Origin: Mobula hypostoma | Taxonomy: Eukaryota | NCBI RefSeq assembly: GCF_963921235.1 | Contig: NC_086097.1 | Coordinates: 32,800,001 to 32,864,000 of the forward strand | Reading direction: 5' to 3' | DNA length: 64,000 bases | In this document: positions 3,481 to 37,651 of the stretch, in pieces | How the letters are laid out: each line of letters starts with the position of its first letter | Position numbering within the stretch: position 1 is the first letter of the stretch | Notes under the pieces: generated by a model | Told to the model about the DNA's origin: nothing | Databases searched by the model: none | Seen by the model: only the letters and a program-made list of their open reading frames with translations | Program-made: the position numbers and the translations under genes

Positions 3481-3485
3481 TAATA

Positions 3486-3562
3486 CAGTGCTTTGAAAAG
3501 TATTCAGCCCGCACAACTATTTTCACTTTTTACTGTCTCTAAATTTAAAATGTATTGAAGTA
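3486..3562 (+). mobile_element. Tc1-like terminal inverted repeat, left part (continues at 31379)
   Basis: TA|CAGTGCTTTGAAAAGTATTCAGCCC is a Tc1-type terminus after a TA dinucleotide. It ends in attgaagta, which is duplicated at 31370-31378. Confidence 0.6.
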
Positions 3563-3772
3563 CAAAACATAATAGAGCAACTGGTCCAGACAACATTGCT
3601 GTTGAAATGATAATGACCTCAGAAGATATTGGAATAGAGAAAATAACAGAAATAGCAAATGAAATCTATGATCATGGGGAGACACCTGATGATTTAAGTA
3701 AATCAGTGTTCATCACACTTCCAAAGAAAAGGGAGCAACAGAGCGTGAGTTACGTTGCACAATAAACTTGAT
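3563..3772 (+). mobile_element. RTE-clade LINE, segment 1 of 3
   Basis: ATGPDNIAVEMI..EIANEIYDHGETPDDLSKSVFITLPKK..TINL; the frame continues as MSH.. at 4986. Confidence 0.75.
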
Positions 3773-4985
3773 TAGATTGGATTAGATTAGATTCAACTTT
3801 GTCATTGTGCCGAGTACAGATACAAAGTCAATGAAATGCAATTAGCTTCTAACCAGAAGTGCAAAACAATAGTATTATTTACAAAATAACTGTGAATAAG
3901 AAGTAAGTGCTACAGCACACAAATATAAAAGTACTGAGACCGTACAATATGGATGCAATACTGCTAAGCGCTGTGATGTGAGGTTCAGCAGTGTCATAGC
4001 CCCAGGGAAGAAGCTCTTCCTGAGCCTGCTGGTGCGGGACCGGAGGGTCTTGTAGCGTCTACCGGATGGAAGGAGAGTAAAAAGTCTATGGTTAGGGTGA
4101 GATGCATCCTTGATGCTCCTCAGGAAATAAAGGCGCTGTTGCTTATTGCCGCTGGGGACTTTAATCATTGTAACCTACGTACCGTGCTTCCAAGATTTTA
4201 CCAAAATATATCATGCACCAAAAGGGTATAAAACCTTAGATCATGTCTACACAAATGTGGCTGACGCTTACAAAGCCACTACCCTCCCCCACCTGGGACA
4301 GTCCGACCATCTTTCATTGTTTCTGCTTCCCAAGTATAGCCCGGTCATTAAACGTGTGAAACCCACAATGAAGACTATTAAGTTCTGGCTGGAGGGTGCT
4401 GACTCTGCTCTTCAGCACCAATTCCAGCACACAGACTGGAGTGCGTTTGCTGCCCATGCCACCACAGACTCTCAGATTAACATTGATTTATATACCAACT
4501 CCGTCCTTGAGCACATCAACAAGTGTGTAGATAGAGTGACATCACAAAAACAAATAAAAGTTTTCCCCAATCAGAAACCATGGATGAACAGAGAAGTTCG
4601 CCTCCTGCTCAAAGCCAGAGATTCAGCCTTCAGGTCTGGAGACCGGGAGGCTTACAGCTCAGCCAGGGCCAACCTGAGGAGGGGAATCTCTCAGGCTAAA
4701 CACATATACAACAGAGAATCGAGGAGCATTTCAATTCCTCAGACCCCCAGCGCATGTGGCATGGCACATAGGTCATTACAGACTTCAAACCACCTAGTAC
4801 TGTGCCCCCTTCCAGCTCTGCTTCCCTCCCTGATCAGCTCAATTACTTCTACGCTTGCTTTGACTGAGAGAACAAGGAGGTCACCCTCAAAGCGGATCTC
4901 CCACCTGGTGAACTGCCTCTCTCACTTTCCACCTCCGATGTGCACCACCCTGAGTAGGGTGAATGTACGGAAGGCAGCTGGTCTG
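3773..4985. mobile_element. Rex1/Babar element with inverted 5' block, inserted into RTE
   Basis: 3773-~4150 is the 3' end on the - strand ((aatct)n-type tail; QQRLYFLR..LLPSGRRYKTLRSRTSRLRKSFFP). ~4146-4985 is EN/linker on the + strand (GDFNH..TLDHVYTNV..SDHLSLFLLP..PNQKPWMN..RKAAGLD). Confidence 0.75.
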
Positions 4986-5315
4986 GATGAGCCACGAGGC
5001 AAAAATTATTCTCAGAGTATCATGATGAGAGCAAGACACTATATAAAACCAGAAATCAGTCAAGAACAATGCGGCCTTGTGGAAACACTAAAACCAGAAA
5101 TGCAATTTTCATGCTACAGATGAACTGTGAACGAGCCATCTAGGTACAAAAAGACATCTACCTATGTTTCATCGACTATACGAAAGCTTTTGACACTGTC
5201 AGACACCAAGATCATCTGGAAATGCTTCAAGATCTTGACATAGATGGGAAAAATATACATTTCTTAAGAAACTGATACTGGGACCAGACAGCATCCATCA
5301 GAATAGAAGGATAAA
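4986..5315 (+). mobile_element. RTE-clade LINE, segment 2 of 3
   Basis: IMMRARHYIKPEISQEQCG..TRNAIFML..LCFIDYTKAFDTVRH..YWDQTASIRIEG. Confidence 0.8.
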
Positions 5316-5695
5316 TGTCACAGTCCCGATCATTAATTCCCCATCTTTCTCCTAATTTCTTTTGATCATGCCACGGTTCTGACTGTTAATTTCCCATTTG
5401 CTTCTAATTCTTTTTGATGACAACACACCTGGTTTCCATCAAGACCTGCAGCATAAGAACCCCGGCATTACAACCACTAGTCGCCAGATCGTTGGTTTTG
5501 CCTGTGTGGTAATTAATGTTTCCCGGCAACTTAGGACCGTGTGTTCTAAGTTTTGCTCCAGTTTCAAGGTTTACCTATGAAACTCTGTCTCTCTGTGTCA
5601 AGATCCCTCTTGTTTGCTGTTCAACGTTCACGTCCTAACTCAATCTCCATGCCTATGTTCTGCACTTGGGTTCGCTTCCTTCGCTCATTGCAACA
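5316..5695 (+). repeat. 5' LTR of sushi-type Gypsy element
   Basis: TGTCAC...GCAACA termini. Its 3' half (5534-5695) is repeated at 30501-30683. It is immediately followed by the PBS and gag. Confidence 0.85.
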
Positions 5696-8600
5696 GAATG
5701 ATCTGGCCACAATGGACCCAGCGGACACGAGTACCCTGCAACAAGCCCTCGCCAGCCAGGGCTCCCTAGTGGGTCTGCACGATCAGCTTCTCCGGGATAC
5801 CATGGAGAACCTCCATTCCCCGTCTGCTAATGTAAGGAAGATCGGTGACCAAGTGGACCATATATCCACTCATTTTACCCCATCCACTCCTGGAATTCTG
5901 TCTAACCATCCCAGACAGTCTGCAGTGGCAACCCCCTATGTGTCAGCAACACCCCCGCCAAGACAGCCACACATACCTGAACCAGAACACTACGCTGGGG
6001 ATTTGGGGAAGTGCTGGGCCTTGCTTCTGCGATGCTCCTTGGTGTTTGAACAGCAGTCATCCACGTACACCACGGACAGATCAAAGATAGCTTATATCAT
6101 GGGGTTGTTGCAGGGAAGTGCCTTAGCGTGGGCTACAATTGTCTGGGATAATCAACCGGATATCTGCTCTTCTTTCCCCACCTTTATCGCGGAAGTAAGA
6201 TCTCTGACACCCTGTCCGTGGTAAAGATGCCGCTAAGCATCTACTCACTGTCCGTCAGGGCTCACGCAGTGTTGCCGAATATTCTGTGGAGTTCTGGATG
6301 TTAGCAGCTGACTCGGGGTGGAACGATGAGGCACTCTAACGGGTATTTCAGAATGGTCTCAGCGACATGGTGAAAGACGAGTTGGTGGCAAAAGCTGACA
6401 CCGACAGCCTGGATTCTTTGATCTCCCTAGCCACCAGGTTGGACAATCGTCTTTGAGAATGCCATAGGGAAAGAACTGGTCGTCCACCATCTTTGGCCAC
6501 TCCACAGCACTCTTTACTGTCTCCCACCAGCACAAGCCTCTCTTCTCCCCCTGCTCCTGGAATAGCTCCCAGCACTGCCCTTTCCACCGCCCCGGGAGAG
6601 GAACCCATACAGCTGGGAAGGAGCTGTCTTTCTCCTACAGAGCGACTCCGGAGATTCAGAGCAGGGAATTGTCTCTATTGCGGTCAGTCCGGTCATTTTC
6701 GTGCTACCTGTTCCCTTCGGCCAAAAGGGAGGGCTCACCAGTAGAAAGGGGGACCCTGGTGAGCCAGACAACATTCCCTTCCGTCCCCCGAACCCAGATG
6801 CAGATCCAAGCGGCTTTATGTTTCAACCTACAGTCCCTGCCTCTGTCAGCTCTAGTGGACTCCGGCACTGAGGGAAATCTTTTGGATGGAAACATAGCTT
6901 CCCAGGCCAGAATTCCTCAGGAGCCGTTGAGTACCCCTCTGGAAGCCCGGGCAATGGACAGTAGACTTCTGGCCCGAGTCACACACTGCACACCACCCTG
7001 TCTCTTATTCTCTCTGGGAAACGGTACGATTTAACCTAATTTCCTCTCTTCAAGCTCCTATAGTTCTTGGGTACCCCTGGTTAAACCGCCATAATCCCCA
7101 CATTGACTGGTCCACCGGGAAGATAGTCAGCTGGAGTCTGTTCTGTCACTCCACTTGTCTACAATTGGCCCTTTCCCCTGTGAAAGTCACTGCGACCTCA
7201 TCTGCCGCTGAAACCCCCGACTTATCCAAGGTTCCAGCATAGTATCACGATCTGGGAAAAGTGTTTAGCAAACAACAGGCTCTTTCCCTACCTCCACACC
7301 ACCCTTACGACTGCACAATTGACCTTCGCCCCGGAGCCCCTCTACCCACCAGTCGGCTGTATAACCTGTCCCGGCCATAAAGGGAAGCAATAAAGGGAGG
7401 CTTATCTAAATGACTCTCATGCAGCGGGCATTATTTGATCATCTTCCCCTGTAGGCGCAGGTTTCTTCTTTGTGGGGAAGAGAGACGGCTCACTGCGCCC
7501 CTGCATTGACTACCGTGGCCTGAACAGCATCACCATAAAGAATAAGGATCCACTGCCCCTTATCAACTCTGCTTTCCAACCCCTTCATGGAGCCACCATC
7601 TTCTCTAAGTTGGGCCTACGAAGTACCTACCACCTGGTCAGGATAAGGGAGGGAGATGAGTGGAAAACAGCTTTTAATACCCCTCTTGGTCACTTCGAAT
7701 ACCTGGTCATGCCATTCGGTCTCACCAATGCTCCCGCCGTCTTCCAAGCTCTGATAAACGATGTCCTTAGGGACTTTATTAATCATTTCATTTTTGTTTA
7801 TTTGGACGACATCTTAATCTTCTCCCGCAGTCTTCAGGAACACATCCACCAGGTCCGTCAGGTTCTGCAGAGGCTTTGGGAGAACAAACGATTCGTGAAG
7901 GCAGAGAAGTACGAGTTTCATGTCCCTTCTGTCAGTTTCTTAGGGTAGATCATTGAGAGTGGGCAAATGAGGGTGGATCCTGAAAAGGTCCGGGTGGTGG
8001 TGGAGTGGCCAAAACCCATGACACTCAAGCAACTCCAGCGATTTCTGGGGTTCGCAAACTTTTATCATCGTTTCATCAGGGATTACAGCCGGGTGGCAGC
8101 GCCCCTTACTCGACTCACCTCTCCTACGCCCCCTTTTCACTGGGACCTCAAAGCGGACTTGACCTTCTCACAGCTGAAGAGGACACTCACCTCCGCTCCC
8201 ATCCTGGTCGAATCAGACCCCTCTCGCCAATTCATTGTGGAAGTTGACGCCTCTGACTTTGGGGTGGGAGCGGTCCTCTCCCAATGCTCTGGCCCAGACC
8301 AAAAACTCCATCCCTGCGCCTTCTTTTCTCACTGGCTATCCCCTGCCGAACGGAACTACGACGTAGGGAACCAGGAGTTACTGGCTGTCAAACTTGCTTT
8401 GGAAGAGTGGAGGCACAAGCTGGAGGGAGTGGAATATCCATTCATCGTCTGGACAGATCACAAGAATCTTGCATACATCAAAACCGCCAAATGCCTTAAT
8501 TCCCACCAAGCCTGTTGGGCATTATTTTTTGGTTGTTTTTGATTCACACTCACCTATCGTCCGGGGTCCAAGAACGGGAAGCCCGATGCTCTCTCCCATC

Positions 8601-9608
8601 AATACGTCTTCAAGGAAGGCTTTCCCAACCCCGAGACCATCCTGTGCAGTGGCTGCCCTCACCTGGGAGATCGAATCCATAGTCAAAGAGGCCCATCGGA
8701 CTCAACCCGACCCAGGCAATGGACCCCCCAAATTGCCTCTTCATGCCTGACTCTGTTTGGTCTCAGGTTCTCCAGTGGGGGCAAACTTCTCGTTTTGCCT
8801 GCCAACCTGGAATTGATCGGACTCTGTCCCTTCTGAAGAGACATTTCTGGTGGCCCTCCATACACGCTGACACTCATTCCTTCATCTCTGCCTGTTCTGT
8901 TTGTGCCCGCAGAAAAGCCTCCCATCGACCACCTGCTGGGTTGCTTCGTCCCCTACCTGTCCCGAGTCACCCTTGGTCTCACATTGTGCTGGATTTTGAC
9001 ACTGGACTACCCCCTTCACATGGGAACACTGCCATACTCACCGTGGTGGACCGCAAAGTGTGCATTTCGTAGCTCTTCCCAAACTCCCTACAGCCGACCT
9101 CCTTGTTCATCACGTCTTCCGTCTTTATGGAATTCCCTCTGATATTATTTCTGACCGGGGTCCCCAATTCATCTCTCAAGTCCGGAGATCCTTTTGTCAA
9201 GCCCTTGGAGCCTCAGTAAGCCTGTCTTCCGGCTTCCATCCACAGACAAATGGTCAAATAGAACGAGCAAACCAGGATTTGGAAGCAGCACTGTGCTGCA
9301 TAACCACCAACAACCCGTCATCCTGGAGCACCCATCACGTTTGGGTCGAGTACGCTCACAACTTCCTGGTCAGGACCGCCACCAGAATGTCTCCCTTCGA
9401 ATGCTCCCTCAGTTACCAACCCCCTGTTTACCGCACATGAAGACGACATTGCTGTGCCTTCACTTCAGGCCCATCTCCGCTGGTGCTGCAAGATCTGGAA
9501 GGACGCTCGCACAGCCCTGCTCCACTCAGCCGACCACAACCAAAGGATTGCTGATCGCCATCAAATTCCTGCACCAAATTATTGGCTTGGGCAGAAGGTA
9601 TTGCTTGC
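5696..9608 (+). mobile_element. Ty3/Gypsy retrotransposon of the sushi-ichi/Tf1-sushi group: gag-pro-RT-RNaseH-IN pseudogene
   Basis: gag MDPAD..PEPEHYAGDLGKC..DRSKIAYIMGLL.G.ALAWA and [14 protein letters not shown] (CCHC); protease [27 protein letters not shown]; RNase [41 protein letters not shown]. Multiple stops and frameshifts. Confidence 0.92.
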
Positions 9609-9730
9609 ACCGTTGTAACTATATGTTATAATTATGTGGTTTTGGTCAGTTTTTGTCTGTCTTGTGTTTCAGTGATATCATGTATTACTAAATTACAATA
9701 AAACAGGACTGCATATCCTCAATCTAAATA
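9609..9730 (+). mobile_element. Short non-LTR 3'-end fragment (Rex1-like tail)
   Basis: T-rich UTR ending aataaaacaggactgcatatcctcaatctaaa, a poly(A) signal plus short repeat tail. Family assignment is weak. Confidence 0.35.
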
Positions 9731-11312
9731 ATTAAGAATCTGATTTGGTGATTGATATTTTTTCTTAAAATATTAAGAAGATTGTATTCTGCTTCACTTT
9801 CCAAGATCTTGCCTTTCAAAATGTTTTGCAAACAGCTGTTTTTTTAAAAAAAAAATTGTTGTTTTTTTATGGCATTCTCTTCTCAATGTTTTGAATTCTT
9901 TTCAATTTTGGAGACTTGCCACAAGAGAGATGGGGGTAGGGATGGTAGGGTAGGGGGTATAGATGGGGGTAGATAGCTTTCTGGCTGTCTATTAGCCAGT
10001 TTTCAGGCTTTTACAGAAGGGGCTATTTTTAGTTTAGTTTTTTCCATCTGAGCTGATCTGAAACTACAAATATGTCTGAATTGTTGTGACTTCCGGTTCC
10101 TCTTTAAACTTTTTTCCCTCTTCCTGATTCATGGGTTTCCTATGCAGTAAGGTTAACCCTTTACACAGCATATGGTTTATTCAAGTACAAATGGATAATA
10201 TTATTAACTATGTTTCATGGAATACGAATGGTTTGAATCATCAGATTAAATGGAAGAAGATTTTAAGTTTTTCATAGATTGAAATCATAGATTATCTTTG
10301 CCCAGGAAACTCATGTAAGGAAGGAAGATAATTAGTGGTGTATTTCCAATTCACAGGATACGGTGAAAGGAGTCTCTATTTTTATAGATTCCTCGATTTC
10401 ATTTGTTCAATATGAAACAATTTCGACCCGAATGGTAGATTTCTGTTAATTACTGGTTTACTTTATAACCAAAAAGTTGTTATGGTTAATGTCTATGCAC
10501 CAAATACCAATTATCCTGAATTCTTTAAGCATTTATTTGCATCTCTACCTAATTTAAATGAATACAGGTTGATAATGAGTGGAGATTTTAACTGTTGCCT
10601 GAATCCCTCGATGCATAGATCTGCACCTAGTCAGGTACTTTCAAACAAATTCACTATTTTTATTAATTCCTTTTTAGTTGATTCCGGAATTTTAGAAGTT
10701 TGGAGGTTTTTACATCCTAATGATAAAGAGTTCTCATTCTTTTCTCATGTATATCATAATTACTCTGGAATTGATTACTTTTTTTCATTGACTCTCGATT
10801 AGTTTCATCTGTTACTGCCTGTGAGTTCGATGCAATTGCCGTCTCTGATCATCCGCCCCTGAAACTATCAAATTAACTGATGTAACTTTCAGTGCTAGAC
10901 AATCGCTGTTCAATTCTACTCTGCTTCAGGACTTAAAGTTTGTTAACTTTATTAAAGAACAGATTGCCTTTTTCCTTCTCAACTAATTTTATGGAAGAAA
11001 TTTCCAGTGGGATATTATGGGACACTTTTAAAGTATATATCCGTGGGCAAATTACTTCATTATGCTGGACTGAGAAAAATGAATTAATAATGAAATACGT
11101 ACATTGATTGATAAGATTAAAGAAATTGATAAAAAATATTCTGCTGCTCCTAATTTGGAGCTTTACAAAAAGAGAGTTGAACTTCAGATGCAACACAGTT
11201 TGTTATTAACATCCCCAATTGAAAATCAATTACTTAAAACTAAGAATCAATTTTATGTACATGGTGATAAGTCGGATAAATTACTGGCCAACCAATTGAA
11301 AGCTGCCTTGGC
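9731..11312 (+). mobile_element. L1-A: L1-clade LINE, inter-ORF spacer and ORF2 endonuclease (segment 1 of 3)
   Basis: ORF2 start at ~10191 (MDNIINYVSWNTNGLNH), AQETH, NVYAPN, GDFN, YSGIDYF, SDH, then HGDKSDKLLANQLKA. Confidence 0.85.
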
Positions 11313-14300
11313 GGGACTTCTGGTAAGATGGTGATAGTTTAATTGCTTAAAATTGTCGTTTCGTTTCATTTCTTACCTCCGCACTTCTTATCTTCCTTTT
11401 TCTACCCCAGACTAACATTTTTTGTTCTCCTACCTGCCTGCGAATACATCTGTCCTACAATGGACTTCAAGCCCTCTAAAGCTGGGAAAAAAAAACATCT
11501 CTGCGACTGCCTCCACCTCCTCTGCTGACATTATCGCCATTCTGGACCAGCACCGACAAGAGATTATATCTGAACTTAAGTCCGAATACAAGTTTTCCTT
11601 CAGTTCGTTGGAGTCAAAATTGGATCAAATCAATTCCAAAGTGGAGGATCATGCCGTTTGTCTCTCTCATCTTGACTTAGAAACTGAAGATTTAAAATGT
11701 CACGTTCAGCAGCTGGAAGCCATTTGCTCTAATTTGAGTGAGAACAACACCAAGTTATCATTGAAAATAGCTGATCTCGAAGGTCGGAGCAGAAGGCATA
11801 ATCTACGAATCCTCGGCCTGCCACAGGCTATCAAAAGCAGAGCTCCTGTTGAATTTTTTTCCTCTTTACTTTGTGAGATTTTTGGGAAAGATACTCTTCC
11901 GATTTACCCGAGTTAGACAGAGCCCACTGTATATTTTGGTTTAAGCCTGAATTGGGCTTCTGGCCGTGCCCAGTTATACTCTGTTTTCATTGCAATCAGG
12001 TGAAAAACCTTTTGATTATGGAAGCACGTTGGAGAGGAAAATTGCATTACAAGGGCCATCCCATTCGTATTGTTGAAGATTATGCTCAAGTTTTGAGGCT
12101 GTGTGCCGAATACAAAGGTGTTATGAAAGAGTTTTACAATCGTGGATTCAGGCCCTCACTACATTACCCTGCCCATCTCCGAATAACTCTTAGTACTGGG
12201 GACAAAAAATGGTTCAACTTTGTTACAGAAGCTCAGGAATTCATCGAAAGTCTCCCTGCCACTGCGACTTCTTCAGACTTGATTTGATTATTTAAAATGG
12301 CTGATTACTATTTTTTTCCCTCTTCGGTTTTTCTTATTTTTTGTTTTCCTTTTAAATTAAATTTTTTAATTACTGAAAATGGTTTATCTCTGCTGGAAGT
12401 TCAGAAATTTATTGGAAGTTTCCTTGCTATGGCGACTCCTTCTAAATTAATTTTTTTAATTACTGAAAATGGTTTAACTCTGCTGTAAGAAGTTCAGAAA
12501 TTTATCGAAAGTCTCCTTGCTATGGAGTCTCCTTCAGACTCAATTTGATTACTTAAAATGGCCATTTGGTACTTTTTTCTTTGTTTTTTTCCCTGTTTTC
12601 TTTTTAAATTTAATTTTTAATCACTGAATTCTTTTTAATTTCTTTTCCTGTGGGTATGGTACTCTGGATTATTATTTCAAGTTAAGTCTAATACTTTTTG
12701 ATAGTAGTTTTCTTTTTTTTCTTTATGTACAATTTTAATTTGAAGTGCATAAGCTGTCTGTTTTTTTATGAACTGTTAATTAAATGGAGCTCATGCAGAC
12801 ATTCAGAAACTGGAAGTTGGGTTTAGGGGTAGTTTTTTTCTGAAGAGCTTGCTGCTGTTTTTGGTAGCTTTCTTGCTGTGGGATCTGGGGGCGGGGGGAG
12901 GGTTTCCTGGTGCCAACACTACATAAACAACCCTTAGTTACTCAGGACTTTTTTTTGTCCTGATTTTCTTGTTTTATATTTTTGCCCCAGAGCTGTTATT
13001 AGAATGTTTGTTCATATTTATGGTTACTACCCTATATGCTTTTTTATATGACAATGGTTAGCCCATTGAATCTTATAAGTTGGAATGTTAAGGGATTGAA
13101 CCATCCTGTTTAAAGAAGGAAGGTGTTTTCACATCTCAAGCAGCTCAAAGCTGACATTGCTTTTTTGCAAGAAACACATATTCGTAGTTTTGATAACTCT
13201 TGCCTTATGTCTTGGTGGGAGGGACAGCACTTTCATTCTGCTTTTCTGGCTAAAGCCGGGGGTTTCAATCCTTATTAATCAGAATGCTCCCTTTGAGCTT
13301 CACAACAAAGTTTTGGATACAAATGGTTGTTTTATTATTGTCTCTGGGAAATTGTATAATAATAGGATAGTCTTGGCTAACCTCTATGCTCCCAATTCAG
13401 ATGATTTGGGCTTTTTTGATCTTTTTTTTCTTTATTGCCTGACTTGAGTTTATATTCCCTCATATTGGATGGTGATTTTAATTGTTGGTTAGATCCAGTA
13501 TTGGATCGAACCTCCTCTGTTCCTGGACTCCCGAGTAAATCTGCTTTATTTATTCACTCTTTCCTTTCTAATTGTGGTAGTTCTGATGTGTGGCATTTTT
13601 TCCATCCTACTGAGAGAGACTATTCCTTTTTTTCACATGTTCATCATACTTTTACTAGAATTGATTATTTCTTAATGGATAATCAGCTGATTCCATCTGT
13701 TCATTCTTGCGATTATCAGAGTATAGTGATTTTGGATCATGCCCCAGTTACCCTGTCCATAAATTTCCCTTGTTTTCCTCAAATGAACAAACATTGGCGT
13801 TTTAATCCGCCCTTGCTGTCAGATAATGATTTTGTAAAATTTATGAAGGACCAGATAACTTTTTTTTTTAAACAGTACTAATATGTCATTTGAAATCTCA
13901 TCCCAGGTTGTCTGGGATGCAATGAAAGCATATTTGAGGGGTCAAGTAATTTCATATACTGTGAATCCGAAAAGAAAGACCTATTTAGAGCATTTAGCCT
14001 TGATTAGTCAAATTAAAGCAACAGACCAATTATATGCCCAGACCAAAAATCCTGACTTGTACAAGAAGAGAGTAGAACTTCAAACTAAGTTTGACCTCAT
14101 CTCCACTCAGCCGGTTGAACGCCAACTTCTTGAAAGTAAGAACCGATTTTACATTCATGGGGATAAGTCCGATAAGTTTTTAGTTAACCAACTAAGACGC
14201 TCTAAAGCTAAACAAATTACAAAATTTTGAATGGGAAATGGGAACATTACTTCGAATCATTTTGATATTAACGACATATCTAAGAACTATTATTCTTGAC

Positions 14301-21658: not shown

Positions 21659-23875
21659 GCCTCGGTCCGTACTAACTCTTTAAACTCACCTTTTTTTCCT
21701 CTCTTTCGAGGTACTCGACAAGGCTGTCCTCTTAGTCCCCTATTATTTGATATTGCATTAGAACCTCTTGCAATTGCTATTCGAGAATCTTCAAATATTA
21801 CTGGGATAACTCGGGGATTAAAGTCCCATAAATTATCACTCTATGCTGATGATTTACTGTTATATATTTCTAATCCTGAGAAATCCATTCCTGCTGTTTT
21901 AGAGTTATTAGCACAATTTGGTTTTTTTCAGGTTATAAATTAAATCTTAGTAAGAGTGAACTCTTTCCGATTAATAAACATCTTCCCTTATATTATAAAT
22001 TTCCATTTAAATTAATTGATAATTATTTTTCTTATCTTGGGATTAAAATTACTTGTAAATATAAAGATTTATTTAAGATTAACTTTTTACCATTAATAGA
22101 CCATATTACTCAACTTTCATCTAAATGGTTTCCCTTATATTTAACTTTGATTGGTCGTATTAATGCAGTTAAGATGTTTTTTTTGCCAAAATTTTTATAT
22201 GTGTTTCAGGCATTACCAATTTTTGTTCCAAAATCTTTCTTTGATAAAGTTGACTCTAAAATTTCTTCATTTATTTGGCAGAATAAGAATCTGAGACTGG
22301 GTAAAATACATTTACAGAAAGCTAAGAGAGATGGAGGTTTAGCATTACCTAACTTTAGATTCTATTATTGGGCTATTAATATTCGACATATGAAATTTTG
22401 GTTACTTGATCAGGATATACTATCTATTCCTAAATGGGTAGCATTGGAACTACAATCTGTTCAGGGTTATACACTTGGCTCTATTTTAGGCTCCTCTCTC
22501 CCTTTTGATTCGAAACGCCTTAAGCAGGTCTCTAACCCGATAGTTAAATATGCTTTGCGCATTTGGTTTCAATTCAGAAAATTTTTTGATCTTAATCAAT
22601 TCGGGTTAGCGATTCCTATTTTAGGTAACATATTTTTTCCTCCCTCTTTTACGGATCGCGCTTTTCAAACCTGGAAGACTAAGGGTATTTTACGGTTTTT
22701 GGATTTATTTTTAGATGGTTCCCTTATGTCTTTTGAACAATTATCTAATAAATATAATTTATCAAGAATACATTTTTTTAGATATTTACAAGTTAGAAAT
22801 TTCCTAAGTACTATACTTTCTTCCTTTCCAATGCTTCCTCCTACATATATTTTAGATTCGATAATTAACCTCAATCCATGTCAGAAAGGTGCATCGGCTA
22901 TGATTTATAATATTATTATGAAACTTAGGAAAGCTCCATTTGATAAGATTAGGGTAGATTGGGAACAGGAATTGGGGCTCACCATTTCTGTGGATGATTG
23001 GGGGCAGATTTTACAATTAGTTAATACTTCCTCTATTTGTGCTAAACATTCCCTAATTCAATTTAAAGTGGTTCATAGAGCACATATGTCCAAAGATAAG
23101 TTAGCGCGTTTTTACTCGCATATTAATCCTTTTTGTGATAGATGTTCGGGGCAGATAGCCTCTTTAACTCATATGTTTTGGTCTTGTCCTACTTTGGAAA
23201 CTTTTTGGAGAGATATTTTTAATATTATTTCTAAGGTATTAAATATAGATATCTCTCCTCACCCTATTACTGCTATCTTTGGACTTCCTAAAATTTCTAG
23301 TAATCTTTCCCCTTCAGCCCGTAGAATGATCGCATTTCTTACTTTAATGGCGAAAAGGTGTATTTTACAACATTGGAAAGAGCTTAATGCTCCAACTACC
23401 TTTTTTTTGGTTCTCTCAGACGATTTTATGTTTGAATCTGGAGAAAATTAGAAGCAACCTTTATGATTCTTCATTTAAATTTGAACAGATTTGGGGACCT
23501 TTTATTCGATACTTTCATTTAATGTAATACATACCCTTCTTGTTTTTTTTCACTGTTTTTAAAGGAGGTCGGGATTGAGGACGTGATTTTAAGTTTAACT
23601 CTGTTTGGTTTCAAGTTAGCCCATTGCTTTGCTTTGCTTTTAGTTAGTTGCACAGTGGGTTTTTTTTTGGGGTTTTTTTTTCCATTGATATATATATAAA
23701 ATTTAGTATACTATTATGTTATCTTGGTTTTTTATGTTTAAATTACATTGTTTGTAGTATTTTTTTTGGTATTGATACCTTCTGGAATTCTATTATATTT
23801 TAACATTGTATTAATGTTTATATGGTTTACCTTTTTGTATACTTATTCAATAAAAAGATTTAAAAAGAAAAGAAA
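21659..23875 (+). mobile_element. L1-D: 5'-truncated L1-clade LINE inserted in L1-C
   Basis: Starts in RT (GTRQGCPLSPLLF..LYADD); 434-aa open stretch with CDRC..HMFWSC; 3' UTR with aataaa and a (gaaa)-rich tail. 13-bp TSD gga(ac/aa)aatattgg at 21646-21658 / 23876-23888. Confidence 0.92.
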
Positions 23876-23888
23876 GGAAAAATATTGG

Positions 23889-24593
23889 AAAGATATTTTT
23901 GACATTATTTCACCAGTTTTGAATATAGACTTACAACTTCATCCAATTACTGCTATCTTTGGGTTACCAATGATAGATTCAAATTATTTAACCTCTTCAG
24001 CACGTAGGATGATTGCATTTCTTACTCTAATGGCTAGAAGATCCATTTTGCTGAATTGGAAAGAGATTAACCCTCCTACTGTATTTCATTGGTTTTCACA
24101 AACTATGGTATGTTTGAATTTGGAAAAAATTAGAAGTGCGGTTTATGACCCTTCCATTACATTTGAAAAAAACTTGGAGGCCATTCATTCAGCATTTTCA
24201 TTTGATGTAATTTGACCATTTCCAAACTTGTTTTATTTCTCTGTTCTGTTGGTTGAGAGGAATGGAGTCGTCGACACTAAGGTTTTCTTCTTTCCCATTT
24301 TCAAGTTGTTAGTATTGCCCAAGTCTTTTAGTTTAGTTGACTAATTCCGTTTAGTTTAGTTTTTTTTTGGGATGGGGTTTGTTTTTTCTTCTTTTTTTTT
24401 TCTTTTTCATGATTTTTCCTGTTTTTTTTTGCTTTGTATTATTCATTGTTACTCCACACGATTGGGAGCTTCGTCAACTTATACTATTTGGTTTTACAAT
24501 TACTCATTTTAAGTGTAACAATGTATCCCCTACTACTTGTATTTTTGCTTTATGTTTTCATTCTATGAAATCAATAAAAAGATTGAAAAGGAA
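23889..24593 (+). mobile_element. L1-C segment 2 (ORF2 C-terminus and 3' UTR/tail)
   Basis: KDIFDIISPVLNIDLQLHPITAIFGLP..ARRSILLNWKE resumes the interrupted frame; ends aataaaaagattgaaaaggaa. Confidence 0.88.
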
Positions 24594-24610
24594 CAATTCT
24601 TAAGTCAGTC

Positions 24611-25501
24611 AACTCAACCTCTCTATGTGCTCGCCACTGCCTTTCGCAGTTTAAGGTTGTACACAGGACTCATATATCTAAAACTAAGTTATCACGGTTT
24701 TACCCTGACATTAGTCCTGTCTGTGATAAGCGTAAAGGGGCCGAGGCTTCCCTTATTCGTACGTACTGGACCTATCCTAGTCTAGAGAAATTCTGGAGAG
24801 AAGTTTTTTCAACCCTATCTCATATTCTTAATTGCCATTTAGAACCTAACCCTCTGGTTGCTCTTTTTGGCACCTCGGGTGAAGTAGATATGCACTTGAC
24901 TCCGACTAAATGTTGAACATTATCTTTTGCCTCTCGCTTGGCTAGATGGTTGGTTCTTCTTAGGTGGAAAGATGCTGCCCCACCCACTCATGCTCAATGG
25001 TTTAGTGATATGTCCTGTTTAGACCTTGAAAAGATTATTCACTTCTTAATTCGGACAAAGTTTCATAAGGTGTGGGGACCTTTTCTTGAATATTTTCATA
25101 ACTCTTCTTTAGGTTAAGTTTATCCTTTTTTTGTATGCTACAATCCCTTACTTTCAGCTTTCTTTTTGTAAGTTGTACGGTTTTTTTGTTGCGAATTACA
25201 TTATACTTCTGGTAGTTGGCATTATACCTTCTTTTTTCCTATATATATTTACAGTTCTCTGGGGTTGTATGCTCCGATTAATTTTTTTTTCTTTTACACG
25301 CAGAAATGGTTGGCCTGGGTTTTTTTTCCAGTGGGAGGTTGGGGTGGATATTAATTTTACATAATTCTATCTTGGGTGCTTTTTTTATAGTTATGAATTA
25401 TATACTAGATTTGTTTGTTTCACACTGTATAAATCTCCATTTTGTTGTTGGGTTTTTTCTGTAGTTTTCTGTAGAAACACATAAAAAAATTAGTAAAAAA
25501 A
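24611..25501 (+). mobile_element. L1-B segment 2 (ORF2 C-terminus and 3' UTR/A tail)
   Basis: NSTSLCARH..QFKVVHRTHISKTKL resumes after the 17-bp TSD; A-rich tail precedes the TSD at 25502. Confidence 0.88.
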
Positions 25502-25516
25502 GAAAGCTGCTTCGGC

Positions 25517-25812
25517 TAAACATCAGATTATTAAAGTTCGTAAATGGGATGGTACTTTGGCGGTTGACCACGATGAAATTAATAAATCTTTTCAAGAATT
25601 CTATACCTCTTTATACCAATCAGAATTTCCTGACGATTCTACCATAATGCATGAATTTTTAAGAAAATTGAATATTCTGAAATTACCACTTAATGAATGT
25701 TTAACATTAGATGCACCCATTACAGAAGGAGAAATAAAGAAAGCAATTTCCTCGAATTCTGGTAAAGCACCCAGCCAGGATGGGTAAACAGAAGAATTTT
25801 AAAAAATCTTTT
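25517..25812 (+). mobile_element. L1-A segment 2
   Basis: KHQIIKVRKWDGTLAVDHDEINKSFQEFYTSLYQSE..PITEGEIKKAISSNSGKAP continues from LLANQLKA at 11300. Confidence 0.82.
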
Positions 25813-27836
25813 ACTTTTTTTTTGGCCCAGGAAGAATATAGAATTAATTTATTTGCTGATGACATTTTAGTATATTTGGCTGACCCGGCCAGCTCTTCGG
25901 TAAGACCTAGGGCCTTGCTGGACAATTATGGTATAGTCTCAGGATATAAAATAAATTGGAATAAAAGTGAAATTTTACCTTTAGGTAGAGGAGACTATGC
26001 CCAATATCAATATGGCACTCAGTTTAGATTGGTTAAATTCAACATGAAATATCTGGGGATTAAGTTTAATTGTAAGTTGGATGACCTTTATAAACTTAAT
26101 TATCTCCCCTTGCTGCGGAATGTCGAGGAGGACCTATGTAGGTGGATAAACCTTCCCATCACACTGATGGGCAGGGTAAACTGTATAAAAATGAAGATAA
26201 TGCCAAGACTTCAGTATTTTTTTTTTCAGTCTTTACCTACCCCATTATCCAATAAATTTTAAAAGATTCTCAATGGATATATTCATCTATTTTTATGGTT
26301 GGGTAAAATTTCTAGAATCTCAATTGAAAAATTGACCTGGGACTATAAATTGGGAGGGTTAAAATGGCCAGATTTTAAAAAATATTATTTAGCTGCACAA
26401 ACACATTTTATTGCTTTTTTTTTGATGAGACATATTCCTTCTTGGGCAACAATTGGCTTACATATGGTAGGAGAAGAGATGGCAGAAGAATTTATATATA
26501 AATGGTACTCCAAATTAATTAAAAAGAAAACAAACAATCCTTTATTGAGACATGCAATTTATATCTGGGGAAAAAATTAAACAATTTATGGGTCTAAAAA
26601 AGGAATGTCCTCAAAGACGCCTCTATCTCAGAACAGATTAATACCCATGACTTCGAGTAATAAATTTCTAGTCACCTAGTATCAGGCGCATTGAAGATTG
26701 TTATAATCAGCAGAAGCAATTTATGTCTTTTGAGGGACTTAAAAATAAATATAATTTATTTAATAACATGTTCTTCTGCTATCTTACGATCTTTTTTGAG
26801 GCCCTACCGAGGTGCTCAGACATGGAGATTCTAATTCGAAAGGGAAGTACAACTAAATTTATTTCTAATATGTATTCTTTATTCCAGGACCAATGCCCAA
26901 AGCTTGGTATGTACAAATCGAGGGAGAGATGGGAGTCAGATTTGGGCATTGTAATTGATCATCAATGTTGGTCACATCTATATTTGGATAGTGTTACCAC
27001 TGTTATCAACTCTAGATAGAGAATGAAACATTTTAATTTTTTTTTTTACATCAGTTGTATCTCACACCTGAAAAAATACATAAAAATAAACCAGAAATTT
27101 CTGACAAGTGTTTCAGGTGTGGCATAGATGTTGGTACCTTTCTGCATTCCACCTGGCTATGCACGAAAATGAGATCTTTTTGGATAGACCTGGGGGAGGT
27201 ACTGGGAAAGATTCTGGGGATGGATTTCCCTCTAGACCTAGAATCATTTCTTCTGGGGAACTTGGCAGTTTTGAAAGTTAACCTCCCCAGGAATAAGTGC
27301 AAATTTATTAAAATTGCGTTGTCAGTGGCCAGGAAATGCATAGCGGTAACATGGAAATCCGATTCCCTTGTACATATTGAACGTTGGAATAAAGAAATGC
27401 AAAGTTGTATACCCCTTGAGAAGATTACTTACACCCTTAGGAATGGATACACTATGTTCATTGAGATTTGGCAACCATATTCAGATTACTTAAGTGCCCA
27501 GATTGTTTCATTTATTTACTTTAATCTTTAAAAAATTAATAAATTCCTTATTATAAGCTAGTTTCTTTAATTTGTATTTTAAACTGACTCAGAGCTGGAT
27601 GCCTACTCTTTTTTCTTTTCTTTTTTCTTCTCTCCTTTCTTTCCTCTGTCTTTTATGTTTTTCTTCCCTCCCTCCTTTTTTCTAAATGCGGGGAGATGGT
27701 GTTGGGATAGGTGTTCTTTTTTCTCTTGGACTTATTAATGTATTTGAAATTAATTTTTTTTCAATATGTATTAATTGTATTAATTGAGTCCTTATATTTC
27801 TTCTTCAAAAAATTTAAATAAAATATAATAAAAAAA
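25813..27836 (+). mobile_element. L1-E: 5'-truncated L1-clade LINE of a different subfamily
   Basis: INLFADDILVYL..SGYKINWNKSE..CFRCGIDVGTFLHSTWLC; 3' aataaaatataataaaaaaa tail. Degenerate TSD containing aaatctttt at ~25804 / ~27844. Confidence 0.85.
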
Positions 27837-30500
27837 ATTGTTTAAATCTTTTTCAAGTCTACTTTCTCCTTGGTTATGTACAATTTTTAAGGATGCCTTA
27901 TTTGTAGGTAAATTACCACAATCTTTCTATGAAGCATCTATTTCTTTTAATTCCTAAAAAAGGTAAAGACCCCATTGAATGTGCATCATATAGACTTTGT
28001 TAAATGTGGACTCCAAAATTTTTTCAAAAATATTAGCAATTAGATTGGAAAATTGCCACAAATTGGCTCTGATGACCCGACAGGATTTATTAAAAATTGT
28101 TATTCGTATTTTAATGTTAGGAGGTTGATGAACATTGTATATACTCCTTCATCTAAAACTCCAGAATGTGTTATTTCGCTTGATGCCAAGAAGGCGTTTG
28201 ATCGAGTTGAATGGAAATATTTATTTAACATCCTTGAGAAATTCAATTTTAGCCCAAAATTCATATCCTGGATTAAATTGATATATCATACACCTTTGGC
28301 TTCTGTACTTACTAATAATCAGAGATCCCCCTTTTTTAGGTTTTTTCGAGGTACTAGACAGGGCTGTCCTTTAAGCCCTTTACTATTTTGATATTGCCTC
28401 GGAGCCCTTGGCAATCGCTCTTCATGATTCACCCGATATATTTGGCATTATTTGTGGGAATGAGACACATAAGGTATCATTATATGCAGATGACCTGTTA
28501 CTATACTTCTCTAATCCAGAGAAATCCATCCCTGCAGTAATATTACTACTTGCTCAGTTTAGTAGTTTTTCTGGTTATAAATTGAATCTTAAGAGCGAGC
28601 TTTTTCCATTAAATATGCAAGTTCCAATCGATAGACAATCACCATTTAGACTGGTTACTGATTATTTTACTTATTTGGGTGTTAACTTTAAATAGATCCT
28701 TATGCTTCTTAGTAATTTTAACTTTTTACCCTTCACTGATCATGTTAAACAACTGCTTACTAAATGGTCCCCATTGTTCCTATCATTGATTGGTCGAGTC
28801 AATGCTATTAAGATGATTATTTTACCTAAATTTCTGTATCTATTTCAAGCGACACCAATCTTCATCTCTAAATCCTTTTTTGATATTATTGATTCTAAAA
28901 TTTCTTCATCTATATGGCAGAATAAAAATCCTAGATTAAGTAAGAAATATTTACAGAAATCAAAAAAGGATGGCGGTTTGGCATTGCCGAACTTTAGATT
29001 CTATTATTGGGCAATTAATATTCGATACCCTAACGTTCTGGACACAAGATTTGGATGAAATTCAATGTCCACGATGGGTGAACCTCGAGAGCGAGCCTGT
29101 ACAGGGGTTCTCATTGGCTTCTATTTTAGGGGCTCTGCTTCCCTTTGCACTTACTAAACTGAATAAACAAACGGTTAATCCAATAACTAAACATACAATA
29201 CAAATATGGTTTCAATTTCGTTTAATTTTTTGGACTGAATAAATTTATCCTATCAAGTCCTATTATATCCAAATTTTGCTTCCAACCATCCAGAACTGAT
29301 CAAGCTTTTCTTTTTATGGAAAACGAAGGGAATAATAGGTTTTCGTGATTTATTCATGGATAACTGTCTCGTGTCCTTTGAACAGTTGTCTAATAAATAT
29401 AATTTGCCTGGATCACATTTTTTCAGAAATTTACAGATTAGAAACTTTTTGAAGGTTATTTTACCTACTTTTCTGATATCACATCAAACTGAAATTACAG
29501 AAAATATTTTAGGTTTAAACCCCTATCAGAAGAGTTTAATAGCAATTGTTTATGATTTAATTACAAAAATACGTTTAGGTATGTCTGATAAAATTAATGA
29601 ATGGGAAAGAGCACAGGTATCTTTACCCATAGAGAAATGGGAGAAAATTCTCCAACTAGCTAACACTTCTTCAATGTGTGCTAGACGACACGCTTTGATA
29701 CAGTTTAAGGTGGTTCATCGGGCCCATATGTCTAAGGATAAGTTAGCTCGTTTTTATGGTCATACAAATCCTGTCTGTAACAGATGTAATTCTGAGGTAG
29801 CTTCCTTGACACGTATGTTCTGGTCTTACCCTCTTTTGGAAAAATATTGGAAGGACATTTTTGATATTATTTCAGTAGATTTGCATATTGATTTACAACC
29901 TCATCCTATTACTGCAATTTTTAGGACTACCAATGATAGACTTTAGTCATTTATCCCTTTCAGCTGGTCGTTTGATTGCATTTGTAACATTAATAGCCAG
30001 AAGATCCATTTTACTTAAATGGAAAGATTCTAATCCCCTTGCTACATTTCAATGGTTTTCCCAAACTTTAACATGTTTAGACTTGGAAAAAAAATTAGGA
30101 GTGGTACCACTGACCCTTCGGTTAAATTTGAAGAAACGTGGAGGACATTTATTCAACATTTTCATATGATGTAAGCTGACCTTTTCCCAATCCTTTTTAA
30201 TTACTTTTTGTTTGTGTATAGAGGAGCGGTGGTAATGACAAATAATGATCTTAACCGATGAAATATGGCAGCCCAGTCTCTGTTTTGTCTTTTTTTTAGT
30301 GCAGGGGGTAAAAACTGTTTTTTGAATATTTTTCCATGCTCAGTTATTAAGAGATTGGGAGGTTTAAATTAAATATGTTACTTGGAGTCTGTGTCTGTAA
30401 ACAATAACCGTTATTAATGTAATCCCGGTCTCTTTGTATTATTATCATTGTTTTGTTTATCAATTTGAAACTCAATAAAAGAGACTGGAAAAGAAAGAAA
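27837..30500 (+). mobile_element. L1-A segment 3 (RT, C-terminal cysteine-rich domain, 3' UTR)
   Basis: GKLPQSFYEASI..SLDAKKAFDRVEW..GTRQGCPLSPLLF..LYADD..CNRCNSEVASLTRMFWS; ends aataaaagagactggaaaagaaagaaa abutting the Gypsy LTR remnant. Confidence 0.88.
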
Positions 30501-30683
30501 GGACCGTGTGTTCTAAGTTTTGCTCCAGTTTCAAGGTTTACCTATGAAACTCCGTCTGTGTCAAGGCTCCATGTCAAGATCCCTCCTGTTTGCTGTTCAA
30601 CGTTCACGTCCGCAAAAGCTTCCTAACACAATCTCCGTGCCTGTGTCCTGCACTTGGGTTTGCCTCATTCGCTCATTGCAACA
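30501..30683 (+). repeat. 3' LTR remnant of the sushi-type Gypsy element
   Basis: Close match to 5534-5695, ending ...cgctcattgcaaca; RTE sequence resumes directly after it. Confidence 0.88.
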
Positions 30684-31369
30684 AGTGAATGAGTATGTGA
30701 ATATCATGAGAGGAGTCAGGCAAGGTTGTGTCTTTTCGCCAGACTTACTCAACCTGTATAGTGAAAATATTTTAAGTATCTAAGACATCAAAGGATTCAC
30801 AATTGGAGACCATAATATAAGTAACATCAGATATGCTGATGACATCGTACTAATAGCTGACTCAGAAACAAAACTTCAAGAACTACTCACTATAGTGGCA
30901 GCAGAAAGTAATTGCAGAGGCCTCTCAATCAACACCCAGACGACAGAAGGCATGGTCATCTCCAAAAAGACAAACATCCCACAATGTGTGATCAAGATCG
31001 GAAATGCAAACATCAAATGAGTCAGCAAATTCAAATATCTTGGCAGCCTAGTAACAAGTGATGGCAGGTGCGACACAGATGTCAAATACAGAATAGCAAT
31101 GGTGAAAGAAACTTTCCAAAAAAATGAAGACCATAACAGACAAAAAGATGAGCACGTACGCTAAAAACAGAATACTGCAGTGCTACATTTGTTCTATCCT
31201 GACTTATGGAAGTGAATGCTGGACCATTTCCCCAGCAATGGAAAAGAGACTAGAAGCAGCTGAATTATGGTTCTACAGGAGAATGTCAAAAATATCATGG
31301 ACCACACACACATCAAATGAAGAAGTTCTCAGAAGAGCCCAAACAGTTCGATCACTCATACAGACAGAC
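30684..31369 (+). mobile_element. RTE-clade LINE, segment 3 of 3
   Basis: EYVNIMRGVRQGCVFSPDLLNLYSE..NIRYADDIVLIADSE..FKYLGS..LTYGSECWT..WFYRRM; ends cagacagac followed by the TSD attgaagta. Confidence 0.88.
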
Positions 31370-31378
31370 ATTGAAGTA

Positions 31379-31625
31379 GAATTTTGAGCTATCTACAAAA
31401 CATTGTGCATCATGTCAAAAGAAAAATTCCAAAATCTGAATAATTTGCTACAAATTAAAAACTAAAACAGAGAGGCTGAAAGAGTATTCATCCCCTTTGT
31501 AATTACTATGCTAATTTTCCATAGGTGCAATATATTACCTTACCAACTCATCCAATTTGTAGATGCAGAAAATTGTTTTCAAAAACTTCATAAGAATAAA
31601 TACCCTCTCCCTCTGAAAGGTCAAA
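31379..31625 (+). mobile_element. Tc1-like TIR continuation with inner direct repeat
   Basis: aaagagtattcatcccc (~31479-31496) resembles the outer aaaagtattcagccc at ~3496, as in IR/DR Tc1 elements. Confidence 0.5.
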
Positions 31626-37613: not shown

Positions 37614-37651
37614 TGTGAGGGTGTGATTGGCTGAGACTACTACAATTTGAT

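Follow-up and report, generated by a model that had tools for sequence, protein, structure and literature searches.

The block between positions 3,486 and 31,625 of the window (the whole 64,000-nucleotide stretch of Mobula hypostoma contig NC_086097.1 that was analysed) raises the question of whether some 28 kb of interleaved element fragments represents a true succession of insertions, one inside another, and, if so, whether anything beyond ordinary transposition has to be invoked for its depth and for the common direction of its elements. The first-pass annotation proposed a seven-level order, Tc1 end > RTE > Gypsy > L1-A > L1-B > L1-C > L1-D, with Rex1 in the RTE and L1-E in L1-A as side branches, and both the order and the two side branches have held (Table 1). 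The RTE copy divides a Tc1-type end and is itself divided by a Gypsy element and by a Rex1 copy; L1-A inserted into the Gypsy 3' LTR; L1-B and L1-E split L1-A, L1-C split L1-B and L1-D split L1-C. In each case the host fragments lie on the same strand, are collinear in element coordinates and are separated by another element. Judged from its sequence, the block is very probably a genuine stack of sequential, ordinary transposon insertions.

Table 1. Components of the nested block, in window coordinates; aa, residues of the reference protein.
Level	Feature	Coordinates	Strand	Basis or remarks
1	TA and outer end of Tc1-type terminal repeat (left)	3484..3562	+	Includes left 9-bp duplication (3554-3562)
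1	Right duplication copy and rest of terminal repeat	31370..31625	+	Truncated by another LINE at ~31626
2	RTE-type LINE, piece 1, 5'-truncated	3563..3772	+	P0102 aa 537-605
2	RTE, piece 2	4986..5315	+	P0102 aa 606-714
2	RTE, piece 3	30684..31369	+	aa 716-943 of 1027; usual C-terminus absent
Side branch in RTE	Rex1-type LINE, 3' end and tail	3773..4120	-	87% to P0222 aa 818-863; PF09004 (Pfam)
Side branch in RTE	Inverted upstream part, same Rex1 family	4121..4985	+	P0222 aa 143-430
3	Gypsy 5' LTR, TG...CA, 380 bp	5316..5695	+	Ends read; match to 3' remnant
3	Gypsy gag-pol, decayed	5696..9609	+	PF03732, PF00078, PF17917, PF17921, PF00665
3	Gypsy 3' LTR remnant	30500..30683	+	Aligns to 5533 onward; first 217 bp gone
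	Stray fragment like a LINE 3' tail, between Gypsy break and L1-A	~9605-9735	+	130 bp; labelled by eye
4	L1-A, piece 1, inter-ORF spacer and ORF2 start	9736..11312	+	aa 5-383
4	L1-A, piece 2	25502..25812	+	aa 381-484
4	L1-A, piece 3, AATAAA and A-rich tail	27844..30499	+	aa 482-1256
5	L1-B, piece 1, 5' UTR, ORF1, ORF2	11313..16322	+	aa 3-1091
5	L1-B, piece 2 and tail	24594..25501	+	aa 1087-1258
6	L1-C, piece 1, 5' UTR, ORF1, ORF2	16323..21658	+	aa 4-1153
6	L1-C, piece 2 and tail	23876..24593	+	aa 1152-1256; begins with right duplication copy
7	L1-D, 5'-truncated, AATAAA and A-rich tail	21659..23875	+	aa 637-1256
Side branch in L1-A	L1-E, 5'-truncated	25813..27843	+	aa 692-1257; weak 9-bp duplication

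The outermost level has a TA target and a terminal repeat in which one motif occurs in an outer and an inner direct copy, as do IR/DR Tc1 elements such as Passport (PMC2651795). The terminal motif has a match of 28 of 31 positions in L001 and another at the end of a short inverted-repeat element, flanked by TA, in L002; the inner copy of the motif (~31476-31494) agrees with the outer one at 16 of 18 positions, a level reached in 21 of 2000 shuffles, and the spacing between the two is 170 bp once the RTE is discounted. Unlike the Passport element described in PMC2651795, the present one has a single end, no transposase and no family assignment: neither a second, inverted end nor a transposase of its own was found in the window, a link to the transposase at 41.6-42.7 kb was looked for and not found, and a metagenome scan with the Tc1 end returned two loci, neither reaching the inner part or a transposase. 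An eighth, outer level, in which the Tc1 would lie within the 3' UTR of the Rex1 copy at 1.8-3.5 kb, is suggested by the early end of that UTR; its other half was looked for and not found. A search for duplications at seven further nested pairs to the right of the nest found none, and a search for a tRNA gene was likewise negative.

The RTE had been described as bracketed by ATTGAAGTA and as having a frame divided by the Gypsy element. Exact copies of the duplication (9/9) do lie at 3554-3562 and 31370-31378, and the three RTE pieces follow one another in register. The last 84 reference codons and the tail are absent, and extension of the search to 31800 gave no further homology. The copy is ~60% identical to EN-RT proteins of 1000 aa, which no source calls RTE; we take it, provisionally and from its architecture, to belong to that clade. 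The side branch within it, which we likewise take to be Rex1/Babar, has an EN-RT ORF that ends in the PF09004 domain, and consists of two pieces in opposite orientations with only GAT common to both flanks; the upstream piece extends from the end of the endonuclease to the start of the RT and has 84% identity to P0222 over aa 169-328. The 3' piece, with its tail, adjoins a piece from further upstream in the same family that has been inverted, an arrangement that resembles the 5' inversions produced by twin priming, which are described in PMC4245944 almost only for human L1 (with one Nimb case) and are accompanied there by duplications of 10-20 bp. In the Rex1 copy, unlike those cases, the intervening ~390 codons are gone and the flanks have only 3 bp in common, which leaves room for a later rearrangement.

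The level-3 element has LTRs of the TG...CA form and the order gag, RT, RNase H and integrase that is typical of Ty3/Gypsy. Its homology stops within the C-terminal part of the integrase, at 9609 (aa 1221 of 1450 of P0364), and its LTRs are equal at 158 of 169 aligned bases (11 differences, ~3% each). Ty3/Gypsy elements make short target duplications, of about 4-6 bp; the earlier statement that none is recognisable here was confirmed, as the flanks do not match, and this weakens the case for a clean insertion but leaves the family call unaffected. L1-A, as had been noted, ends on the 3' LTR remnant, at a TT|AGGA site whose context is known from the 5' LTR. At its left side L1-A has no duplication and no ORF1, and the junction is a deletion that carries the stray LINE tail. 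A deletion at or after the arrival of L1-A probably took its 5' part, and in the same event the Gypsy element would have lost the end of its integrase together with the first 217 bp of its 3' LTR.

For L1-A to L1-D, the assignment to the L1 clade is based on relatives that carry PF03372 and PF00078, two of them named LINE-1/LIN1, as well as on PF13966 in L1-D and PF02994 in the ORF1 of L1-C; Pfam detected only coiled-coil matches in the ORF1 of L1-B, and L1-D, like L1-A, has no ORF1. L1-B (~5.9 kb) and L1-C (~6.0 kb) are full-length elements. The interrupted host frames resume as had been reported (Table 1), and the halves of the RTE, L1-A, L1-B and L1-C join within three reference codons or overlap by the duplication. 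Where the comparison could be made, there was also no sign that rejoined halves come from different subfamilies; they match the same relatives: both pieces of L1-B have P0001 and P0002 as best relatives, and these two are the top two of 100 references for all four L1-B pieces compared. L1-A and L1-C share 63-71% of their residues in all five ranges that they have in common. L1-A piece 1, which has the left L1-B duplication copy at its end, matches L1-C at 72% over 10033-11301, and L1-C piece 2 matches L1-A at 29838-30205 at 77%. L1-E is a distant L1-like family, with 31-32% amino acid identity to A-D and with best references only 28-37% identical; it may belong to L1 proper or to Tx1. The L1 families could not be told apart by rank correlation of their reference-score profiles. 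The L1 steps bear the signature of target-primed reverse transcription, with A-rich tails, duplications of 13-17 bp and TT 5' of the cut at four of the five sites. A tail together with a duplication in the range of ~10-20 bp is found for L1-B, L1-C and L1-D, and L1-A has the tail without the duplication; the duplication in human L1 is typically about 15 bp (PMC4245944).

The order had been presented as reconstructed from target-site duplications, and for four of the six junctions this is correct; Gypsy-in-RTE and L1-A-in-Gypsy, where no duplication was found, are placed by frame continuity and position. The lengths given for L1-B, L1-C and L1-D (15, 17 and 13 bp) are exact only for L1-C, which has 17/17 at 16306/24594; there are mismatches in L1-B (13/15 at 11298/25502) and L1-D (12/13 at 21646/23876). 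Among 546 random zone pairs, scores of at least 9, 10, 11 and 17 arose in 29, 10, 4 and 0 pairs, respectively, so that the L1-E repeat (only 9 exact, at 25804/27844) is by itself no better than chance; the other duplications also sit exactly at homology breakpoints. Related-copy contigs in four of four public runs (6, 2, 2 and 2 contigs) join 11297 to 25502 across the L1-B site. The 15 joints listed of 322 include none that skips L1-C, and those skipping L1-D have flanking sides of just 22-24 letters. Five near-exact contigs in runs X3 and X10, which say nothing on transcription, indicate that the sequence is present in other samples, and one from a second sample (X3 record 15) spans the left junction between L1-A and L1-B with 0 differences in 643 bases; no contig spans the whole nest. 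That the stack is partly an artefact of assembly, or a product of recombination between similar neighbouring copies, might be imagined from the two junctions that lack duplications and from a region made up entirely of repeats. We consider it highly improbable, in view of L1s that are only 50-70% alike in protein and too distant for mis-joining, of duplications that pair correctly across 2, 8, 14 and 28 kb, of the junction recovered letter for letter in another sample, and of an RTE that loses no codon at the Gypsy site (aa 714, then 716), where two extra bases stand relative to its frame.

Divergence had been expected to fall inward, and this is so for the innermost level only. Disruptions per kb for levels 2 to 7 are 6.6 (RTE), 3.8 (Gypsy), 5.4 (L1-A), 4.5 (L1-B), 4.0 (L1-C) and 1.1 (L1-D), with a Spearman coefficient of -0.66 (p=0.16); decay is homogeneous across levels 2-6 (p=0.72) and L1-D alone is younger (p=0.02), having 0 stops and 2 frameshifts in 1857 nt. 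No inner element is significantly older than its host; the Gypsy element appears less decayed than L1-A, not significantly (p=0.11), and the divergence of its LTR pair lies in the same range as that of the inner L1s. Levels 2-6, each roughly 2-5% decayed, would have arrived so close together that their timing is not resolved, and L1-D would have come clearly later; by a rough depth ratio, the L1-D family is more expanded here than in a related species. The proposal that the nest gives a relative chronology of transposable element activity holds less well: what a single locus yields is the order of individual copies, and not that of the periods in which families were active. The chronology of human elements draws on many thousands of clusters (PMC1914374), which a single locus cannot match.

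The depth of the nest does not appear to need targeting. In 60,000 simulated runs, in which insertions fell at random within a growing block with a 330-bp anchor, the share with at least seven levels ranged from 5.6% when the order was random to 12.8% when it resembled the observed one, so that under this model the depth is unsurprising; the estimate depends on an anchor that was picked after the fact, and a larger one lowers the chance to 2-4% at 2 kb and to 0.2% at 10 kb. Each newcomer of 5-6 kb became most of the available target, and because of this snowball effect a region that tolerates long insertions might suffice. A preference of L1 for L1 copies, or a local hotspot active in one burst, would also produce a four-deep L1 chain: four of the five L1 insertions sit in another L1, L1-A, L1-B and L1-C are similar in age, and non-random nesting and hotspots are described for human DNA (PMC2836564). 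Against this, the four sites are at unrelated ORF2 positions (aa about 383, 484, 1090 and 1153) with just a TT|purine-type context in common, the block was mostly L1 DNA at each step, and random insertion reaches such depth often enough in the simulation; targeting seems to us very unlikely.

The common direction of the elements is less ordinary. Of 27 readable elements in 1-57 kb, 25 share one orientation, as against three of eight beyond 57 kb, a boundary that was set after inspection. The nest by itself is not significant (7/8, p=0.07); outside it 18 of 19 are co-oriented, counting a minus-strand Penelope end. The census of 34 rows includes seven strand calls made by eye and five by relative strand. 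Pfam matched only five of 150 open segments searched (of 202) beyond 31.4 kb, so that several strand calls rest on translations read by eye. Left out, having no assigned direction, were the Tc1 end, 9605-9735, 37640-38380, 43087-43845, 46400-47200, 49330-50080 and 54613-54770, and further small CR1-like tails (e.g. near 54.8-55.0 and 59.7-60.3 kb) were omitted. In human L1-in-L1 insertions, a sense bias of 2.18:1 has been put down to features of the L1 sequence (PMC2836564). The orientation is the same here (4/4), and 25 of 27 is unlikely even under a 2.2:1 bias (p=0.003). Unlike the human case, the sense strand of the L1 hosts is rich in T, with target motifs divided evenly or biased towards the other strand (plus-strand fraction 0.31-0.53), so that motifs do not explain the polarity.

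In human L1, insertion-time strand preference is tied to the direction of replication or transcription. A preference of this kind, or chance, without any selection, would agree with the non-significant count in the nest and with the fact that the window is one of many read, whereby extremes are selected; it is unlikely, as the bias is common to elements with different integration enzymes (LINEs from several clades, two Tc1 copies and LTR elements), and as it is so strong outside the nest. As read from the sequence, the polarity fits an antisense transcript, be it an intron or a lncRNA, or else a one-strand piRNA cluster. With less certainty, a putative minus-strand transcript, such as a long intron or non-coding RNA, might purge elements in its own sense, though no host exon or promoter for it came to light in analyses directed at the elements themselves; LINE and LTR elements in zebrafish are described as avoiding same-strand gene neighbourhoods (PMC9341512). 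A more specific proposal, that the nest lies within a one-strand, flamenco-like piRNA trap in which a long minus-strand precursor would be processed into piRNAs antisense to the families present and selection would retain long, antisense insertions, would be in keeping with the orientation contrast at 57 kb, a succession of two full-length L1s, a sample of at least nine element types and a plus strand that is not richer in L1 target motifs, unlike the human case (PMC2836564). The long tract of remnants nearly all on one strand is also like the flamenco and flamenco-like clusters of Drosophila (PMC10643416). The bias of those clusters, as described there, is Gypsy-specific and backed by small RNAs, whereas the tract here is LINE-dominated (Gypsy-type elements are three of the 27 counted), vertebrate and known from sequence; the 57-kb limit was chosen after looking, the layers are mostly old with one recent addition, and a long intron predicts the same polarity. 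We regard such a trap as quite unlikely, and as decidedly unlikely the fuller version in which the nest would be the core of a LINE-dominated trap that caught three L1 families quickly and a lineage-expanded fourth later.

The nest is, then, a deep but ordinary pile-up and a good example of a known phenomenon. The human genome has 307,412 nested clusters according to the Transposon Cluster Finder, the largest of 91 kb and with up to 86 interruptions in one (PMC1914374); there, too, younger elements split older ones and the order is read from the interruptions. Compared with the five-deep, 11-kb example of its Figure 1 (L2 > L1MB3 > Tigger1 > L1PA8 > AluY), the present nest is two levels deeper, belongs to a cartilaginous fish and includes four successive L1 families; the portion of PMC1914374 available to us gives no maximum depth, and no depth record is therefore claimed. 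The nest contains at least five distinct L1-like families, L1-D being much the youngest. Among the papers listed by our literature searches, none was on point for nesting in sharks or Mobula or for Rex1 inversions, and none dealt with unistrand clusters in sharks or rays; for the latter reason the locus would matter more if its one-way orientation marks a piRNA source. As it stands, the nest is a clear case for teaching and gives a single data point on the order of L1 families in a lineage that has received little study, and its mapped unique junctions are ready markers for uniquely mapping small RNAs. If the reading as a trap were true, the nesting order would record the order in which the families came under piRNA control.

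Judged by its proteins, which match fish LINE and LTR proteins, the window is repeat DNA of a vertebrate; apart from L1 and Gypsy, the labels used here (RTE, Rex1, Nimb, L2, CR1, Penelope, restriction-endonuclease LINE) are our presumptive assignments from domain architecture. The first-pass annotation had read positions 3486 to 31625 as a nest of seven levels, Tc1 > RTE > Gypsy > L1-A > L1-B > L1-C > L1-D. The tests, which are based on the window, fetched relatives and one comparison with public contigs, support this topology, with two junctions (Gypsy in RTE and L1-A in Gypsy) lacking target-site duplications. The duplications quoted for the other L1 elements and for RTE, including the 9-bp repeat that brackets RTE in a Tc1-type end, are all present (see table). 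Among 546 random zone pairs, scores of at least 9, 10 and 11 arose 29, 10 and 4 times and scores of at least 17 never; position is a stronger argument than these scores, every pair lying where host homology stops and restarts. When pieces were aligned one by one, frameshift-aware, to profiles of intact relatives, the frames of RTE, L1-A, L1-B and L1-C resumed past their inserts as claimed, the pieces being near-contiguous in reference amino acids.

Duplications (window positions), protein pieces (frameshift-aware alignment; tblastn agrees for the L1 elements) and disruptions (stops plus frameshifts) of the nested elements
Element	Host	Duplication	Match	Pieces (aa)	Disruptions per kb
RTE	Tc1	3554/31370	9/9	537-605, 606-714, 716-943	6.6 (8 in 1213 nt)
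Gypsy	RTE				3.8 (pol; 9 in 2352)
L1-A	Gypsy			5-383, 381-484, 482-1256	5.4 (20 in 3733)
L1-B	L1-A	11298/25502	13/15	3-1091, 1087-1258	4.5 (17 in 3770)
L1-C	L1-B	16306/24594	17/17	4-1153, 1152-1256	4.0 (15 in 3747)
L1-D	L1-C	21646/23876	12/13	637-1256	1.1 (2 in 1857)
L1-E (side branch)	L1-A	25804/27844	9 exact	692-1257	3.0
Rex1 (side branch)	RTE				5.1

Where relatives could be compared, the rejoined halves showed no sign of coming from different subfamilies: the same two relatives (P0001 and P0002) are the top two among 100 references for all four pieces of L1-B, at 59-72%, and the amino acid identity of L1-A to L1-C is even along the protein (63, 66, 70, 71 and 64%), with no step at a junction. 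In four runs of public contigs, compared at an 85% threshold over 11001-31000, a joint from 11297 to 25502 that skips L1-B and its contents occurs in every run (6, 2, 2 and 2 contigs). Since 6-13% of bases differ in the two contigs listed with it, these contigs represent other copies of the L1-A family and not an empty allele. Joints of ~21645 to 23877, skipping L1-D, occur in two of the four runs with sides of just 22-24 letters; a joint skipping L1-C is absent among the 15 joints listed of 322. One contig from a second sample (X3, record 15) spans the L1-A/L1-B junction from 11218 to 11860 with 0 differences in 643 bases, and none of the contigs compared covers the entire nest.

The outermost host is a single Tc1-type end beginning with TA, whose terminal motif matches one metagenome locus (L001) at 28/31 and is also found in another (L002), at a short inverted-repeat element with TA on its flanks. 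With RTE discounted, the motif is repeated 170 bp inward (21 of 2000 shuffles reach this match), and the window holds neither a second end nor a linked transposase. Within 31345-31378, RTE breaks off inside its ORF, the last matched residue (aa 943 of 1027) directly meeting the duplication; it has no normal 3' end, which could reflect internal priming or later deletion, and a short CAGA-type repeat stands just before the break. Left of the nest, the 3' UTR of another Rex1 (3390-3485) ends at the TA of Tc1 with its tail absent, and because it stops there Tc1 itself may be nested in this Rex1 as an eighth level; a search for the other half of this Rex1 found none.

Gypsy comprises a TG...CA LTR of 380 bp, gag, RT, RNase H and integrase. 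As the annotation had conceded, no duplication is recognizable around it in RTE, and this level is accepted because the RTE frame runs on with 0 codons lost. Around L1-A in Gypsy there is likewise no duplication. On the left, the integrase ends at 9609 and is followed by ~130 bp of stray LINE-like tail and by L1-A from inside its spacer; a deletion would account for the missing left side. On the right, 217 bp are missing from the start of the 3' LTR and the L1-A tail abuts the remnant, as had been described, at a site that reads TT/AGGA in the intact 5' LTR. This is the expected trace of an L1 insertion into an LTR, and the order Gypsy > L1-A therefore holds.

The Rex1 inside RTE (3773-4985) is in two abutting pieces, a 3' end on the minus strand (87% to aa 818-863 of the reference relative P0222) and a piece on the plus strand (aa 143-430), with ~390 codons absent between them. 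The arrangement looks like 5' inversion by twin priming, which the text cited here describes as seen almost solely in human L1 (PMC4245944); a later rearrangement is possible, since the flanks have just 3 bp in common. Among other structures, a local tandem duplication with three partial copies (12206-12628) lies at the end of L1-B ORF1, and a second RTE-type copy (31786-32514), hosted by a Nimb/I-type LINE, carries at the 5' end a perfect fold-back of 54 bp and is flanked by a 13/14-base repeat (31776/32501). A second Tc1 (41590-46320), with a transposase and no left end found, is split by an L2-type LINE carrying a 760-bp insert (43087-43845) and, in its right end, by a LINE (44038-46254) whose C-terminal zinc-binding part is by eye of restriction-endonuclease type and which is bracketed by an unusually long duplication of 41 bp (39/41 identical).

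Divergence had been expected to fall inward. L1-D does have a lower disruption rate than pooled levels 2-6 (p=0.02), but those levels are homogeneous (p=0.72) and no significant rank trend runs through the six levels (p=0.16); changes at conserved residues give the same picture (RTE 12/106, Gypsy 17/176, L1-A 38/249, L1-B 29/268, L1-C 30/249, L1-D 5/122; L1-C vs L1-D, p=0.014). Five layers thus arrived in one span too short to order, and L1-D much later. The LTR pair differs at 11/169 sites (3.3-11.3%), or ~3% per copy. Summed contig depth, which does not equal copy number, has a ratio of organism B to organism A (the sources of the public runs) of just 0.24 for L1-D (21659-23875), against 2.4-3.4 for each of the four other L1 elements (L1-A, L1-B, L1-C, L1-E); the depth of L1-D relative to the other layers, far higher in A, weakly hints at a species-specific expansion of the L1-D family. 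Of the proposed chronology of transposable element activity, the order of copies stands; the nest alone cannot give the order of family activity, and its dating value is modest.

The depth of the nest is unremarkable. With nine inserts dropped at random per base in a growing block, at least seven levels were reached, with a 330-bp anchor, in 5.6% of simulated runs if the order was random and in 12.8% if it was observed-like. The share was 2-4% with a 2-kb anchor and 0.2% with a 10-kb anchor; each new insert of 5-6 kb would turn into the bulk of the target. Elasmobranch genome size is described in part of one report as driven by repeat accumulation (10.1101/2025.06.08.657570), and similar stacks should recur in a repeat-rich genome. 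For the human genome, clusters with five levels, a length of 91 kb or as many as 86 interruptions have been published (PMC1914374), and the nest is one more case of an already known phenomenon.

Seven of the eight nest members lie on the plus strand, the exception being the Rex1 tail. Over 1-57 kb, a limit set after inspection of the data, 25/26 elements of readable orientation are plus (19/20 among those with a search hit); this census omits the Tc1 end, 9605-9735, 37640-38380, 43087-43845, 46400-47200, 49330-50080, 54613-54770 and small CR1-like tails, their direction being unreadable or untested. A minus-strand Penelope-type end of ~100 bp (50908-51023) lies within an RTE-type copy with a 10-bp repeat on either side, and a Gypsy-type element (36100-37664) has an internal inversion, its gag plus and its RT piece minus. 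Adding the former (~50.9-51.0 kb) gives 25/27 plus, and counting the latter as minus 24/27 (against 1:1, p=6e-6 and 5e-5; against 2.2:1, p=0.003 and 0.014); past 57 kb orientation is mixed (3/8 plus). For human L1-in-L1 insertions a bias of 2.18:1 is given and put down to sequence features of L1 in the source as far as cited (PMC2836564), whereas L1 target motifs in the T-rich hosts of the nest do not favour plus (0.31-0.53), so that this explanation does not transfer to the tract. A flamenco-like cluster may yield an equal one-strand picture, but the bias of such clusters is Gypsy-specific in the portion of the source cited (PMC10643416). The simplest cause of the polarity would be selection by a putative minus-strand transcript; zebrafish LINEs and LTR elements, in the part of the study cited, avoid same-strand gene neighbourhoods (PMC9341512). 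The lead that the tract leaves is this strand polarity along its whole length.
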